Shown here piece by piece: positions 20,118-31,280 of a stretch of 64,000 nucleotides of DNA. How positions within the stretch are numbered: position 1 is the stretch's first letter; each line of letters opens with the position of its first letter. The stretch spans positions 26,446-90,445 of IMG/VR virus record IMGVR_UViG_3300035422_000096. One strand, given 5' to 3'. Source of the DNA: a virus (taxonomy: Duplodnaviria > Caudoviricetes). The position numbers were made by a program, and so were the translations under genes. Under the pieces are notes generated by a model. The model had not been told where the DNA came from, searched no databases, and worked only from the letters and a program-made list of their open reading frames with translations.

Positions 20118-21776
20118 TTAAGATACTTCGTTTAATTTTATATAATCCTCATAATACATCCATTTTAGTCTTTCGCCTGTTATTGGGTGTTTTCCAGAAG
20201 TCTTACTTTCACCCCTACAACAAGCAGATAAAGATGATTTACTAACACCACACCATTTTGAAGCTGAAGATGTATCAAATACTTCTAAGGTATTTAGACA
20301 TATTAGTTGCTTAGATAATTTTGTCCATCTTTTATTGAGCCGTTGAATAATATAACAATCAATATCTATTTTATTTTTAATCAATTTGTTATAATCTTCT
20401 TTATACATCCATATTAAGTAATTACCAAATTCATCTATACCGCCTGTCATATAATTATTCTTACAACAACCACAAATTAGATTTATATTTATACCCGTTA
20501 ATTTAGAAGCATCAGAAATTGAACTATAAAGTTTTTTATTATTTAAACATACAACTTCTTTTTCAATAGTGGAATATCTTTCTTCAACCGGGTTATAATC
20601 ACATAATCCAATTTGAGAACCAAATTTCAAATAGTTATATATGGTAAATCTATTTATTTTAGTTATTTTTGAAATTTCTGGTAATATCTTTGTCTTATGC
20701 ATGTAAACATCACATACTTCTTTAATTTTACTTGAACATGCATTTTTATTTATTTTATAACTGTTTAAACTATCAAAATCCATCATCTCTGATAACTTGC
20801 TGTTTTTTAAAGAATTTAATATATAGGTGTATTCACTACGACAACAATTTATTCTAATTATTTCACATCCATTTTCTGAAGCAAGTTTATCTTTTAATCT
20901 GTCAATTTCTTGTCGCTGTTCTAATGTATATTCATAATCCCTATTTGTTTTTTTATAATGAAATCCACCATCCATCTCTATAATATATTTTTTATTATTA
21001 TGTACAAAATAAAAATCATATTCTGGATGATAGGGATTATTATTGTAATAAAAAAATTGATTTTCAAAAGAAAAATGATATGTATATGGAATGTTGAAAT
21101 GTGTTAGTATGGCATTCATTAGTTTCTCTGGGTAACTGAATCCATCATTACAAAAAGGACAGTATACAATATTATAAGTACTTACATTATAAATACTTTT
21201 CCCATGAACAACAGAACCACAACATTGACACAACCAAGATGTTTTATGTTTTGACGAAGGCCAATACTTATAACCTTCATTTTTATCATATAGCATCTGT
21301 GCGATGTCGGGACGCTTACTCCATAAATCATTGACACCTACCATTAATATACGGTTACAACAGACAGGACATTTGGAATTATTTTTTAACATTATTTCTG
21401 TGATTTCATAACAGTAATTATCTTTTACACATTTTACTTTATATCTTTTTTCATATGTGCCATTCTTTTTAGGACTTTTAATTTGCTCTAATATAATTCT
21501 TTCATTTATAATATCACCAACACAATATCGAAAACCATAATGTGTGGTATCAATTATTTTTCCAATTTGCCCATTCAATAATGCACCTTTTGTTAAAACA
21601 TATTTTTTATCATTATATTCAACTTTAATATAATTTTTATTTATAGTTTCTAAATATGTTAATGTATAAATGATATTATCATATTTAACTCGAAAATTTA
21701 CATTTATTGATTTCTGCCAATCTATCCTATTATATTTTAAAACAAAGTCTTCTTTAAATAATTTCTTTTGAATCAT
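20118..21776 (-). CDS. Zinc-ribbon EDxHD-type endonuclease with C-terminal NUMOD1-like repeats
   Basis: CxxC pairs, SYPEK..YDFY..IIEMDGGFHY, two VxCLN..SASK repeats. Confidence 0.7.
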   Translation of the reverse strand: MIQKKLFKEDFVLKYNRIDWQKSINVNFRVKYDNIIYTLTYLETINKNYIKVEYNDKKYVLTKGALLNGQIGKIIDTTHYGFRYCVGDIINERIILEQIKSPKKNGTYEKRYKVKCVKDNYCYEITEIMLKNNSKCPVCCNRILMVGVNDLWSKRPDIAQMLYDKNEGYKYWPSSKHKTSWLCQCCGSVVHGKSIYNVSTYNIVYCPFCNDGFSYPEKLMNAILTHFNIPYTYHFSFENQFFYYNNNPYHPEYDFYFVHNNKKYIIEMDGGFHYKKTNRDYEYTLEQRQEIDRLKDKLASENGCEIIRINCCRSEYTYILNSLKNSKLSEMMDFDSLNSYKINKNACSSKIKEVCDVYMHKTKILPEISKITKINRFTIYNYLKFGSQIGLCDYNPVEERYSTIEKEVVCLNNKKLYSSISDASKLTGININLICGCCKNNYMTGGIDEFGNYLIWMYKEDYNKLIKNKIDIDCYIIQRLNKRWTKLSKQLICLNTLEVFDTSSASKWCGVSKSSLSACCRGESKTSGKHPITGERLKWMYYEDYIKLNEVS

Positions 21777-23876: not shown

Positions 23877-24899
23877 TTATACAAAAGCATCATCTGCATC
23901 TTCTTCATCTTCTCGCACAACATATATTTTTGTCGTTTCACTACTTTCATGTCCTAATAATTTTTGAGCTGTTTCTATAGATCTGTTTTGATAACATACA
24001 AGATTAGTTGCCCGTGAAGCTCTAAAAATATGTGGATTTATTCTACGTCCCATTATTTGAGTAAATAACCCTTGACACCATCCATTAAATGTGTCTTCTC
24101 CTACTTGGCGAACATCACCATTTGAGTGTTTTATTACAAACATATAAGGACAATCATCATCGCCACGTACTTCTAACCACTTGTCTAAGAATCTCTTTAC
24201 ATCTTCTCCGAATTGCAACTTACGAACTTTCCCTTGGCGACTACGTCCCTTACAACGAATATCATGTGTTTTATACGAAACGGATTCTACTTCGTGTTCA
24301 ATTCCTTCTTCATCAGTAATTGTAATCATCTTTCTCTTTGGTTCATAATTCACAACCTCTTTAAGAAGCTGCCTGGCTTCAGCCCTACGACAGCCTGTTG
24401 AATATGTAAACTTAACATATGCCAATTTTTCCCATTCTTCACGCTTTTCTAATTCTTCACAAAGATAATTAATTTCATCAGGAGTAAGAGGAATTTTTTC
24501 ATGAACTTTTCCTGTTAATGCTATCCTTTGCTCTGTTGTCACATAATTCCGGAATAAAGGATATTCTTCCTCATAAAATGACTCTATAAATTTATTAAAT
24601 GCACTAACAGACGATTTTTTAAATTTCATAGCAGAATCAGAAAGCCCACGATTATTTAACCAATTCAGATATCTAAGAAATTCTTTTTTCTTAATTTCTG
24701 TACAATTCTTATCTCTTAGATTCTCATGCACCCACCAAAAGTAAATTTTTAATGCGCTGGTATAACCAATCAAACTTTTTGGAGATAAATGAGTTTGATT
24801 ACTGAGGTAATCAGCGACCATATCTCTGTTAAATTTATTTACTTGCGACCACATTTCATCAGTTATTTCATCAGATCGTTTAGCGATTTCTTCACCCAA
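23877..24899 (-). CDS. Tyrosine recombinase (phage integrase family)
   Basis: Complete R-K-H-R-H-Y set: CRRAE, KGR, HIFR, LGH, TKIY; TTG start behind GAAAGGAAG. Confidence 0.9.
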   Translation of the reverse strand: MGEEIAKRSDEITDEMWSQVNKFNRDMVADYLSNQTHLSPKSLIGYTSALKIYFWWVHENLRDKNCTEIKKKEFLRYLNWLNNRGLSDSAMKFKKSSVSAFNKFIESFYEEEYPLFRNYVTTEQRIALTGKVHEKIPLTPDEINYLCEELEKREEWEKLAYVKFTYSTGCRRAEARQLLKEVVNYEPKRKMITITDEEGIEHEVESVSYKTHDIRCKGRSRQGKVRKLQFGEDVKRFLDKWLEVRGDDDCPYMFVIKHSNGDVRQVGEDTFNGWCQGLFTQIMGRRINPHIFRASRATNLVCYQNRSIETAQKLLGHESSETTKIYVVREDEEDADDAFV

Positions 24900-25103
24900 T
24901 AATCTCACTTCCTTTCATTACAAAATAATAAAAAAGACTTGCCACCTAGAGATAAGGAATATCCTTGTAATTCTCTTTATCTGTCTAACTGACAGACCAT
25001 AAATTATTTACATTACATATTTCTCCAAACAAATAAGGCTCACACTCATTTTTTTGAGTGCAAGCCTTTCAAAAGCTTTGCTCAAATATCAGATACTATA
25101 AAT

Positions 25104-27276: not shown

Positions 27277-27397
27277 TTAAAATATTCCTTTCATATATTA
27301 ATTTTATATTTCTAAACTTTTATTTTTTCAAATTGTTTGGCTATTATCGGAGAGCCTTGCTACGGAGGACTGTTTGTACAAAACAGACAAAATGAAT

Positions 27398-27472
27398 TGC
27401 TGAAAGCACAGGAGTCGAACCTGTTATTTGATGGGTATGAGCCATCCGTGATAATCCGTTTCACTCGCCAGC
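27398..27472 (-). tRNA. tRNA-CAT (Met or Ile2) with irregular acceptor stem
   Basis: GATGG-CT-CAT-AC-CCATC anticodon arm, ACAGG-TTCGACT-CCTGT T arm; 3' acceptor strand is 9 nt (GCTTTCAGC) against GCTGGCG. Confidence 0.7.
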
Positions 27473-27474
27473 AA

Positions 27475-27547
27475 TGCGTCTATTGGGACTCGAACCAAAA
27501 ACCTATCGGTTAAAAGCCGATTACTCTACCAATTGAGTTATAGACAC
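27475..27547 (-). tRNA. tRNA-Lys(TTT)
   Basis: GTGTCTA/TAGACGC acceptor, ATCGG-CT-TTT-AA-CCGAT; one mismatch in the T stem. Confidence 0.9.
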
Positions 27548-27552
27548 AAAAA

Positions 27553-27969
27553 AGAACAAATGACGATACTGCAAGAATAGCAGCACCGCCACCTGTATAA
27601 GAGATGTACTCCTTATAAACGCCTCTGATTCAGGATAACTCTCGTATAATATTATAGGGGAGTTAGAATCAAAATCTACTTCCAGAGCATGTGAAGTCGT
27701 ACAGTCTCGCTTGGTGAACTTAACTGGTCTATATCACGTTTCACAAGTTTTTCATGTAACATCACACCAACTAAAATATAGTCACATGTTAGACGAAAAC
27801 AATTTGGGATAATCGAGAACCATCTAATCAATTTAAATGTCCTATAGACGATGTTTCAATGCTGGCAATAAATTAGTACCGATGTACTTTTGACAGGTAA
27901 TCTCAACCTAAATATTTCAAATTACAACCTTTGTTTGTTCAAACCACGTAGGATAAATCATTGTTCTGT
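27553..27969 (-). ncRNA. Large structured ncRNA (~415 nt), ROOL-like candidate
   Basis: ORF-free; ends pair (27958-27967 with 27553-27563); many internal helices; TATAAT at 27976-27981 (minus); abuts tRNA-Lys. Structure is seen, family name is inference. Confidence 0.6.
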
Positions 27970-28031
27970 TTTTATATTATAGCCCACAATTCCTAGAGGT
28001 TATTGTGGTACATTCCGAGGAAAGATAAATT

Positions 28032-28334
28032 TTATTGTTTATCGAAATATCCATTCAATTTTCTATTATAATATCTTGTAATTTTAGGCTTTGCCCAAAT
28101 TCTGGACTTACAAACTATATCATCATATGTATGAATTTCTTTTTCTGGAAGATAATTACATTCCAAACTTAATCCATCCATTAATTTAACAGTCATGTTT
28201 TCTGATGAGGTAGTAGAAGATAAATAGTCGAAAACAATTTTCTCTGCCGTTTTAAATATTTTTCGGACTGTCGCTATATCTATATCTTCTCTATTTGCTA
28301 TTTGTTTTACTAGATTTTCCTGTGTAACAATCAA
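28032..28334 (-). CDS. Divergent HU/IHF-like DNA-binding protein
   Basis: N-terminal TQENLVKQIANREDID..VRKIF helix pair and C-terminal AKPKITR strand. Confidence 0.55.
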   Translation of the reverse strand: MIVTQENLVKQIANREDIDIATVRKIFKTAEKIVFDYLSSTTSSENMTVKLMDGLSLECNYLPEKEIHTYDDIVCKSRIWAKPKITRYYNRKLNGYFDKQ

Positions 28335-28541
28335 ATAAGCATCATACCTCCAATCTGGTATCGAATTCGATTCGCGAGAATCATATCTTGCTTTGTAAAA
28401 AATAACATCGTATTTCCTCCATACTTAGTTATGTGTGATATGTTGCTTCTCTTATACACACATTTCATAGTCCACTATAAATGGGTTATTTATTTTAGAG
28501 TATTTTATTTAGACCATAAATAATGGACTATTTTTCAAGAT

Positions 28542-31280
28542 TCACATAAGTGGAATTTTATTATTTTTCTTTCTTTCTCTATCCCACTTTCTTCTATATT
28601 CCTTTTTGCATGAATCACATCTTGTAGATTTTGATTCAATAGGTAATTCAATCCATTCTCCACAATCAATACATTGAATAAATTTAGTTTTCTTTATTTC
28701 AATATTTTTCTCCAAACTATTTACTGCATATTGACCATAGCAGAACCAAAGTAATTGTTTATAACGCTTACCTTTTCCATATAAATATTCTAATAACATA
28801 TCTGTGATGGTTTCTTCTGAATATCCAAACCTAGCAAATTCATCTCGAATTTTGCAAGCAATATATCTAAGATTATCTATATATTCATCTTTCATATTGA
28901 TCATATAACGGTATTGTTTGTTTAACTCGTCATATAAATCCGAAACTTCTTTACTACAAATAATCTGAGGATTAGACATCATATACTTATAATTGATAGT
29001 ATCTAACTTCAAGCCACGAGTATTTATTGGCTTATTTGGAATCCTGTCATATATCTTATTTACAAAACTTTCATTACGCTTTTTTACCTGAGACTTTTCT
29101 TTATCTTTCGCATATTCAAAGAATGCTGGTAATTTACAGTTTGTATATTTAGCAATCTGTTCGTTTATTTCGTGAGGAAATTCTGGCTTATATAAAGTCT
29201 TGGCGTAATCAATCACAAAATTATTTTGACAGCATAATCTTTTTACACAATCAATCGCTTCTGATTTTTCAGCGTCAGTACCAAATGTAAACACCTCATT
29301 ATTCCATATCTTAGAAATATTATTACTATAAATGCCAATATTCCCACCTGTGAAAGCAGCATTAAGTCCAGCATAGATATTCTTATTATTAAGCTGAGTA
29401 GGTTCTGCCTTTCGCATATTATAATAAAGGGGAACAATGCCATTCATATTGCGTTCTGCAATTCTTACAAAATCTTGATCAGCTACAACGAGACTTTTAT
29501 CTCCATCAACATCATACATTAGTATTTTACTGATTAAATCATGTGTACTAGCATATATACCATCCGTAGTAAACCATTCTCGAATTAATTTAGATCTATC
29601 ACCATAAACCTCATTAGCAACATTAAATCTAATAGCATGTTCTTTATACAAATGAGGACTTCTCAAACAATCCAACTTTTCATATCGCTTAAATAACCAA
29701 CAAAATACTTCTTTGTCACTTAATAAGCCAGTAGGAGTGTCAATATGTCCAAACCAAAACTCACAAGCAGCGTAGAAGTCAGGAAGTAAAAATGTATATT
29801 TCCCATTTACCTCAAGTTTTCCACTACGATATTTTTTCAAGAGACTATTCTTTACTTCGCGGATCACATCTTTAGCATATGAATCATTGAGCAGAGCTGG
29901 ATACATTTTTACAGCCTTTTGAAAAGCAGTCATATTCGTATTGTATGGTGTAATTCCCAAAATATCCATCATAGTATCTTTAGACGAACAAACATTACTA
30001 ATGCGTTCAGATGATTTTTGAATTAGTAAATCAATCTCATCATCAGAAATATTTGTAAGCGTCTGAAGCATCTGGTAATTTATTTTAGCATTTTTAATTC
30101 TGTCTTCTTCAACATTACATTTACCAGCACTACAATGATATTTTTTAAATGAATCCTTATATTCGTCCCATGAGTCATAGAATTTTGCCATCTTAAATTG
30201 GGATTTTGTGAAGATAATCTGTATATCTTCTTTAATAACATCATGCTCCTGACCATAAATATCTATGATAATAGGAGAGTAGTCATTAACTTCTATAAAC
30301 TTCCTAAAATTAAACACACCTAATAAACCCTTAATCCAAGGCGCACGAAACATGAAATTTTTACTAGAAACTGATGGAAGGATCATGCCAGCTCCATCTG
30401 TATGAGGAATTGGCACATAATCCGTTTTTCTCGTAATCGAGTAATCCGTTTCATCCACAAAGTCGAAAATGCCATATACATCAGTTTCAAAATCATCCAC
30501 CACAATAGACTTGTCAATGTTAAATTCTTTCCACTCATCAGTAGCAGAATTAGTTAAAGCCATATAAGCTAAGTGTTTATTGACGTTATTTCCACCTTTT
30601 GAGTTAATTTTATCTATTGTAAGACCACACATAACAGTCTTTTCTATTTCATTCCATACAGATTCTTTAATGAATACCGCTTTCTTTTTTCGAATCTGTC
30701 CAGCAGAAGATGTAAAATATTTATATTTCTCGCCTTTATATGTAAACCCGTAAAAAGATATATCTTTAAATACGTCAAAATAATAAACCTGTACCACAAT
30801 CAAAACATCTGTTAATTCATCTTGCTTAATATCAATAGTACGACTAAGAGCAGAATCAAATACGGATATAATGTTTGTATCGTTCAAACTATCTTCTTTG
30901 ATGGTGCGAAGATGATCTTTCCCGTCTGTCAACTCATTCTGATTCATTTTGTTAGATAGAAGAGTAAGTAACTTTTTTTTTGATTCCTTCGCCTTTTCTC
31001 GTTTGTGCCTAATTAGTCTTGACCAATGTAAATATTCAGAAACAGTGTTATAAGAAGATTCAATGATGTCAACTTCTTCTGTCTTGTCATTTTTCAGATT
31101 CTTAATATCGTCTTCTGTATATCCAAACTGTTTTAATTGTCTTTCAATTTCTGGTAGATTATTTTGAACATAATTACGTTCTCTACGATATTTACAATTC
31201 ATATCATGTAAATATTTCTCGTGATTGCTGTAAAAATGTCCAGTATCTACAGAATACATATTATATTGTTTATCTAGCAA
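28542..31280 (-). CDS. yonO: Single-subunit RNA polymerase, YonO-like (RdRP-related double-psi fold)
   Basis: 912 aa; catalytic YDVDGD (DxDGD), LRSPHL, HTDGAG, FRAPWIKG motifs; C-terminal CxxC..CxxC. Confidence 0.85.
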   Translation of the reverse strand: MLDKQYNMYSVDTGHFYSNHEKYLHDMNCKYRRERNYVQNNLPEIERQLKQFGYTEDDIKNLKNDKTEEVDIIESSYNTVSEYLHWSRLIRHKREKAKESKKKLLTLLSNKMNQNELTDGKDHLRTIKEDSLNDTNIISVFDSALSRTIDIKQDELTDVLIVVQVYYFDVFKDISFYGFTYKGEKYKYFTSSAGQIRKKKAVFIKESVWNEIEKTVMCGLTIDKINSKGGNNVNKHLAYMALTNSATDEWKEFNIDKSIVVDDFETDVYGIFDFVDETDYSITRKTDYVPIPHTDGAGMILPSVSSKNFMFRAPWIKGLLGVFNFRKFIEVNDYSPIIIDIYGQEHDVIKEDIQIIFTKSQFKMAKFYDSWDEYKDSFKKYHCSAGKCNVEEDRIKNAKINYQMLQTLTNISDDEIDLLIQKSSERISNVCSSKDTMMDILGITPYNTNMTAFQKAVKMYPALLNDSYAKDVIREVKNSLLKKYRSGKLEVNGKYTFLLPDFYAACEFWFGHIDTPTGLLSDKEVFCWLFKRYEKLDCLRSPHLYKEHAIRFNVANEVYGDRSKLIREWFTTDGIYASTHDLISKILMYDVDGDKSLVVADQDFVRIAERNMNGIVPLYYNMRKAEPTQLNNKNIYAGLNAAFTGGNIGIYSNNISKIWNNEVFTFGTDAEKSEAIDCVKRLCCQNNFVIDYAKTLYKPEFPHEINEQIAKYTNCKLPAFFEYAKDKEKSQVKKRNESFVNKIYDRIPNKPINTRGLKLDTINYKYMMSNPQIICSKEVSDLYDELNKQYRYMINMKDEYIDNLRYIACKIRDEFARFGYSEETITDMLLEYLYGKGKRYKQLLWFCYGQYAVNSLEKNIEIKKTKFIQCIDCGEWIELPIESKSTRCDSCKKEYRRKWDRERKKNNKIPLM

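Follow-up and report, generated by a model that had tools for sequence, protein, structure and literature searches.

The region studied here comes from an uncultured mouse-gut phage of ~155 kb. It occupies positions 27553-27981, on the minus strand, of a 64,000-nucleotide stretch of DNA (the window, meaning the whole stretch analyzed, to which all positions refer) inside a 90-kb IMG/VR viral contig with an estimated completeness of 58%. Near-identical DNA is present in many mouse-gut metagenomes. The region is non-coding and separates a gene for a 100-aa protein, upstream, from genes for tRNA-Lys and tRNA-Met, downstream; it is essentially free of open reading frames, the sole frame being one of 51 aa with a TTG start. 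A first-pass annotation had described it as one highly structured RNA of ~415 nt, ROOL-like or of an undescribed class, abutting the tRNAs and closed by a helix between its two ends. We find that the region is made up of several RNA modules in a row, preceding two tRNA genes, and is not a single 415-base RNA. The genes and modules are, from 5' to 3' along the minus strand:

28542-31280, minus strand: gene for a 912-aa YonO/RdRP-like polymerase (Pfam RdRP PF05183, 37 bits; phrog_8308, 823 bits)
28334-28032, minus strand: the 100-aa gene upstream of the non-coding RNA, matching none of the known families
27976-27981, minus strand: -10-like TATAAT, directly after a terminator-like hairpin of the 100-aa gene (read from sequence)
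27853-27968, minus strand: module B-short, partly degenerate (comparison with domain B of sister phages)
27839-27849, minus strand: small linker hairpin GUC-UAUAG-GAC, between B-short and domain A
27607-27795, minus strand: domain A, 189 nt, pseudoknotted (alignments A5, A6 and A9; covariance model R1)
27556-27596, minus strand: hp3, a 17-bp terminator-like hairpin with loop UAUUCUU (terminator scan; alignment A8)
27549-27555, minus strand: U-rich tail UCUUUUUU, joining hp3 to the start of tRNA-Lys (sequence; terminator scan)
27474-27548, minus strand: tRNA-Lys(UUU) (ARAGORN; Rfam tRNA, 61.9 bits)
27399-27473, minus strand: tRNA-Met(CAU) (ARAGORN; Rfam tRNA, 37.3 bits)

The 912-aa protein, encoded two genes upstream of the non-coding region, is a YonO-like single-subunit RNA polymerase. 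For the 100-aa protein, Pfam, PHROG and PDB gave no family support, and an HU-like identity was rejected for this reason. Past the two tRNA genes come a 70-aa reading frame and then a gene for an SbcD/Mre11-like exonuclease (405 aa, phrog_284); because this neighbor is an SbcD/Mre11-type exonuclease and no RNA-repair enzyme, an RNA-repair context was rejected as well. Among the dispersed tRNA genes of the window (Ser, Tyr, Lys/Met) there are also an HNH or intron-type endonuclease-like gene (20118-21776, minus strand; phrog_4538/559) and an integrase-like gene (23877-24908, minus strand; phrog_1).

We compared the region with known RNA families using covariance models. At gathering thresholds, Rfam 15 matches only the tRNAs in the region; with permissive filters, 27300-28200 yields only chance-level matches (E>0.1), with ROOL (RF03087; a 574-position model, gathering threshold 99.1 bits) and GOLLD (RF02032; a model of the conserved 3' domain, gathering threshold 150 bits) unmatched at E≤10. 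Both models are also unmatched in the whole window at E≤0.05. The same searches are positive in sister phages: a full ROOL scores 293.5 bits at L123:3344-3946, and GOLLD scores 196 bits at L042:4883-5340, 166.7 at L022:5134-5608, 113 at L007:5174-5609 and 101 at L009:5137-5566. The proposed ROOL-like membership is thus not borne out. Self-cleaving ribozymes, T-box, tmRNA, RNase P, 6S and the other Rfam families have no covariance-model match in the region, where ARAGORN likewise finds no tmRNA. Across the whole window, hammerhead gives zero matches at E≤0.05, and a twister-P1 ribozyme-like match (57.7 bits, E 2.3e-10, under the gathering score of 67.2) lies at 46392-46460 on the plus strand.

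ROOL is a phage-encoded structured non-coding RNA with pseudoknots that lies beside tRNA genes (PMC5737381; bioRxiv 10.1101/2024.12.08.627333), and RNAs of the ROOL/GOLLD kind form a homo-oligomeric RNA-only cage (10.1101/2024.12.08.627333). Both have been placed near tRNA islands and are perhaps co-transcribed with them (PMC5737381; 10.1101/2024.12.08.627333; PMC12990946). The region resembles ROOL in being a pseudoknotted, tRNA-adjacent phage RNA, and it resembles GOLLD, a phage or prophage RNA of tRNA arrays that sometimes has embedded or adjacent tRNAs, in being modular, with a variable 5' and a conserved 3' region. It differs from ROOL in that the conserved unit is 189 nt long, with five helices and one pseudoknot, while the 429-nt span consists of unrelated modules; domain A is also far smaller than GOLLD. 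The possibility that domain A is the 5' region of a GOLLD was rejected, because it occurs without the GOLLD 3' domain in the window and in many relatives.

Single-sequence folding is uninformative for this region: relative to shuffled sequences, the 429 nt gave z = -1.61 and domain A alone z = -1.47, neither better than chance. Folding alone therefore neither supports nor refutes a structured RNA, and the evidence must come from relatives. We collected 77 loci through the two flanking proteins. The widely conserved part among these loci is only a ~100-nt core (27798-27698), which is 84-86% identical where the flanking 100-aa protein is only 68% identical, so that the RNA is conserved more strongly than the neighboring protein gene. 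An alignment from the core to the next tRNA shows conservation extending from UUUCGUCUAAC up to the long hairpin just 5' of the tRNA. Pattern scans of IMG/VR, bacterial genomes and metagenomes, each filtered with a profile, enlarged the domain A family to ~96 distinct phage or metagenome loci with ~55 distinct sequences (IMG/VR and metagenome contigs, plus one Lachnospiraceae MAG contig). The window copy matches covariance model R1 over its full length (166.1 bits, E 3.5e-34), and in five records searched with the model each genome has a single copy. Frame-breaking indels of 1-2 nt and the lack of a conserved reading frame across the relatives speak against coding by domain A. Against GenBank phages, blastn with 11-base words matched only tRNAs, so that at this sensitivity the family is absent from cultured phages. 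The scan of 185,579 bacterial species genomes gave 120 pattern matches, one of them real: L284:2330-2570 (CAMWHY010000005.1, a Lachnospiraceae MAG), where domain A and the hairpin follow a homologue of the 100-aa gene and the tRNA after them is absent. This contig may be a lead to the host or a mis-binned phage contig.

Comparison of these relatives gives domain A the following elements:

27795-27791 with 27624-27620, minus strand: helix P1, CGUCU/AGGCG, closing domain A
27788-27781 with 27760-27753, minus strand: helix Pa, with invariant UAUA..UUAGUU..UGA in its loop
27744-27740 with 27695-27691, minus strand: helix Pb
27726-27724 with 27704-27702, minus strand: helix Pc
27670-27666 with 27631-27627, minus strand: helix Pe, a variable hairpin
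27689-27684 with 27612-27607, minus strand: pseudoknot PK, crossing P1

In the MAFFT alignment A5 (30 distinct sequences), 89% of the cells are paired and 20 pairs have changed on both sides; none of 500 shuffles was as good, and sliding the partners by 1-3 columns reduced pairing to 28-50%. The model-based alignment A6 (34 sequences) gave the same outcome, and 22 metagenome sequences that had played no part in deriving the fold were 91% paired, with 16 double-change pairs and slid controls at 27-51%. Across A5, A6 and A9, 89-91% of the cells are paired, 16-22 pairs carry two-sided changes, 0 of 500 shuffles match this and slid controls reach 27-51%; because the family is drawn mostly from phages that are close relatives, the independent compensatory events are fewer than these counts suggest. 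The comparison provides solid evidence that P1, Pa, Pb, Pc, Pe and PK are maintained through compensatory changes. Invariant unpaired bases include UUAGUU, AAAAACUU, CAAGC, GUAC and GGAAG. Two further pairings were discarded: an RNAalifold helix GUG/UAC (A6 columns 70-72/109-111), in which only 36-55% of the cells are paired, and a pseudoknot in which the Pa loop (UUAGUUG) would pair with CUAAC of Pe, which by eye fits the window group only.

These data bear directly on the reading that no RNA function exists here, the region being either DNA conserved as a hot spot of recombination or an intergenic jumble of promoter and terminator elements. Such a reading would accommodate the clear use of the locus for cassette exchange (see below) and the unremarkable single-sequence fold. 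However, compensatory changes hold six helices, the pseudoknot among them, an independent set of sequences repeats this result, and the conservation exceeds that of the neighboring protein gene; we regard this reading as already disfavored and extremely improbable. Domain A is a previously uncatalogued structured-RNA family of large gut and rumen phages: the suggestion of an undescribed class holds for these 189 nt, with strong covariation and no Rfam family match at E≤10. The element is more than a chance arrangement, but its extent and architecture differ from those first described. Among the helices proposed from the window alone, GATTC-TAACTC/GAGTTA-GAATC corresponds to Pe, with many double changes, and CTGC/GCAG to the top of the 17-bp 3' hairpin. 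Three others dissolve on comparison. In TAGTTGGT/ACCAGTTA, TTAGTT is invariant while its partner varies without compensation, and the partner's CAG instead forms a covarying pairing with CTG at 27704-27702. TTAGATG/CGTCTAA occurs only in the window and L097-like copies, and CGUCU pairs with AGGCG (P1) family-wide. AGTAC/GTACT is broken in L363 and absent from L414 and L007, and its CGG is part of a hairpin, CGG/CCG, that covaries.

The 3' hairpin is a module of its own. Of the 17 pairs of hp3, 7 are G-C; they enclose a 7-base loop and are followed by the tail TCTTTTTTGT, the stem and U tract predicted for an intrinsic terminator. It ends 7 nt 5' of tRNA-Lys, which has no promoter of its own. 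In alignment A8 (33 distinct sequences) the hairpin is 96% paired, with double changes in 8 pairs, and in the MAG contig its 5' strand is wholly different with complementarity retained. Domain A is followed by hp3 in 71 of 84 loci, and the hairpin is common to domain A, domain B and ROOL units among the relatives. In gut phages among these (L010:4529-4585, for example), domain A or B is separated from hp3 by a 'constant' linker of ~60 nt that contains a polypyrimidine block, CCUCUUCUUAU; this linker is nearly missing from the window's lineage.

The hairpin is also where the idea of one ornate, compact ROOL-class RNA of ~415 nt, closed by AGAACAATGA/TCATTTGTTCT, can be judged. The proposed closing helix, AGAACAA-TGA/TCA-T-TTGTTCT, can form only in the subgroup to which the window belongs, where a B-type 5' end is present: the window, L050, L103 and L363 all have complementary strands, the substitutions seen (A/G at 27961, T/C in the 3' strand) keep the pairing, and in the window B-short carries mutations in its local closing strand, leaving the 5' strand free. 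The 3' strand, however, lies inside hp3, which is 96% paired in the 33 sequences including phages without the 5' partner, and the same substitutions improve hp3 (G-U to G-C), so that they do not discriminate. Since the three substitutions fit both pairings, the closing helix is at best an alternative conformer. In addition, domain A stands alone behind its own promoter in most phages, and the ROOL and GOLLD models are unmatched. We consider a single closed RNA highly improbable; the 5' 120-170 nt are separate, and the 3' end is a hairpin common to ROOL and other units.

This 5' part (27968-27803) is poorly conserved. Close relatives of B-short occur only in L050/L051/L139/L190, which represent one phage lineage, and in metagenome contig L363; a further search for relatives of the window's 5' module returned the same lineage only. 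Its inner hairpin changes from GTAAT/ATTAC to GTGGT/ACTAC in L050, and the linker hairpin at 27849-27839 becomes GCC-UAUAG-GGC in L363 and L414, a covarying change seen in few sequences. B-short has a counterpart in a second motif, domain B, of 150-195 nt, which we found in 36 IMG/VR contigs (L009:4398-4595, L022:4398-4553 and 34 more) and of which 27853-27968 of the window is a remnant. Domain B has a covarying hairpin (A/C)GCA-GCCAUAAA-UGC(U/G) and a CGG-UACUAAU..-CCG hairpin, and has no Rfam match; it is a second uncatalogued conserved RNA motif of the sister phages. B-short and domain B have only their ends in common, the first 13-17 nt CAGAACAATGATT and the last ~35 nt CATCGGTACTAAT..ATTGCC..TGAA, with a different interior. 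Two consensus pairings of the motif are damaged in the window copy, in which the closing strand GTTCTG has become GCATTG and the hairpin CGG/CCG has become CGG/CCA.

The slot 3' of the 100-aa gene is filled in several ways. Most relatives have domain A in it. Domain B occupies it in phages whose flanks are near-identical to those of domain A carriers, with the same promoter and the same 3' module. A domain B-type element followed by domain A is found in the window and in L050, L103, L363, L007 and L414, and L123-type loci carry domain A, a promoter, a full ROOL, hp3 and a tRNA, so that hp3 is not directly behind domain A. GOLLD fills the slot in L042-type loci, whereas in L009, L022 and L007 it comes downstream, after one more tRNA; in L012, L041, L047 and L049 the slot holds a tRNA only. 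Domain A shares the context of ROOL and GOLLD, being phage-encoded and tRNA-adjacent, with a tRNA ≤300 nt away in 56 of 84 loci and the slot in common; nine anticodons occur among the tRNAs behind it while the RNA stays constant. The varied slot contents and the nine anticodons show that domain A, domain B, ROOL and GOLLD behave as swappable cassettes of a tRNA-linked non-coding locus. The first-pass description of a structured RNA abutting tRNAs fits well, with tRNA-Lys and tRNA-Met directly adjacent and ROOL or GOLLD in the slot of relatives. Sharing the slot is an interchange of position, not of function.

Six RNA libraries contain the stretch. Contigs from three low-depth mouse-gut RNA-seq libraries of different studies cover 27590-27818, 27807-27966, 27642-28004 and 27464-27918, while the polymerase gene (28520-29500) and 28015-28115 have no cover in RNA-library contigs, which is no proof of absence. 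One contig runs through hp3 into tRNA-Lys. In one library two contigs meet unmerged at 27807-27818, just 5' of domain A, and position 27807 has an adaptor junction. These data are weak evidence that the region is transcribed, with read-through of hp3 into the tRNA, as they consist of assembled contigs only and DNA carry-over is possible. The TATAAT said to place the start at the closing helix is present at 27981-27976 and is a candidate promoter of the unit formed by non-coding RNA and tRNAs; gut-phage relatives have TATATAAT/TTATAAT at the same place, 5-7 nt 5' of domain A. The start at the closing helix is not fixed in this way, because the contig ends at 27966 (X18), 28004 (X19) and 27918 do not coincide and no transcription start can be read from them.

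Taken together, we consider it probable, if by no means certain, that the stretch is the front of a phage ncRNA-tRNA unit and specifies a stable structured RNA allied to ROOL and GOLLD; this estimate applies to the nature of the element, and we hold the mode of action with much less confidence. Transcription probably starts at TATAAT 27981-27976, and the transcript would then comprise the decayed B-short, domain A, hp3 and its U tail, and continue into tRNA-Lys and tRNA-Met. A cut by RNase P at the 5' end of the tRNA would free a stable structured RNA, whose 3' end hp3 may protect, and the freed RNA would act in trans in the same role as the ROOL or GOLLD of the sister-phage slot. Comparable cases are known: the tRNA cluster of phage T4 yields the stable small RNAs species 1 and 2 (rnaC/rnaD), and RNase P makes 3' ends in cases such as MALAT1/mascRNA. 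As in these, a structured RNA co-transcribed with tRNAs could here be released by tRNA-processing enzymes; we know of no sequence or fold relation between domain A and species 1/2 or MALAT1/mascRNA.

The placement of terminator-like hp3, 7 nt before a promoterless tRNA, would also fit a regulated leader. According to such a model, domain A (or B) would be a cis-acting sensor (a riboswitch, or a protein- or tRNA-binding element) that sets passage through hp3 into the tRNAs. The order of elements is that of a leader: a pseudoknotted domain, a linker, a strong terminator-like hairpin with a U tract and a promoterless gene. Domain A and domain B alternate before an identical linker and hairpin, and the many invariant unpaired nucleotides are reminiscent of a binding pocket, all of which recalls riboswitches and T-boxes. 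The resemblance is nevertheless incomplete: no riboswitch or T-box family of Rfam matches, no conserved anti-terminator pairing was seen in the one segment pair compared, the gene that follows encodes a tRNA, and some copies of domain A lack the hairpin, as in the L123-type loci, where a promoter and ROOL come next. For that segment pair, taken from the 3' part of domain A and the 5' strand of hp3, duplex energies in 20 members of the family were no better than those of shuffles (z about -1.2 to +1.4). Moreover, the spacing between domain A and hp3 varies from ~10 to ~130 nt, the same hairpin is also preceded by ROOL, and an RNA contig bridges hp3 and the tRNA. We therefore judge a cis-acting leader or attenuator unlikely.

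Self-processing is a further alternative: acting as a ribozyme, or serving as the target of a dedicated nuclease, domain A would allow the precursor to be split into its modules (B-short, A, tRNA), as small ribozymes do elsewhere in the genome. Strongly conserved unpaired nucleotides, a pseudoknot and the twister-P1-like element (57.7 bits) in the same window are consistent with this, as is, though as a very weak signal, the unmerged contig junction upstream of domain A. Against it, domain A matches no Rfam ribozyme family at E≤10, its 189 nt exceed the size of most self-cleavers, and contigs of two other studies cross 27807-27818; we consider this very unlikely.

Domain A, domain B, ROOL and GOLLD may, in a tentative extension that we hold to be possible but rather doubtful, be interchangeable cassettes of one phage locus, each co-transcribed with the following tRNA and linked to it in function, perhaps as a carrier storing, shielding or timing the release of the tRNA. 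A related idea of 'inhibited storage' concerns the tRNA embedded in GOLLD (PMC12990946). If the extension is true, domain A would be a minimal and tractable model for the giant ornate RNAs.

Few bacterial or phage RNAs without an assigned function are as striking as ROOL and GOLLD, and domain A and domain B swap with both at one syntenic locus. What is new for the catalogues is the domain A family and the second motif, B; the kind to which they belong, structured phage RNAs of tRNA islands, is known. The slot variants provide a natural "allelic series" in which the traits common to these RNAs can be compared, and the 189-nt domain A is far easier to probe, mutate and solve than a cage of 600-800 nt. 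The results also show that an apparently large "ornate" gap beside phage tRNAs can consist of several independent modules in a row, and such modules should be taken apart before modelling.

A last observation concerns two contigs, L083:4195-4480 (minus strand) and L164, which lack the 5' end of domain A, comprising P1 and half of Pa. In its place stands the terminal part of a TnpB/IS605-OrfB-like gene whose tail is a zinc ribbon (CxxC..CxxC), so that domain A looks as if it had been truncated by an insertion.
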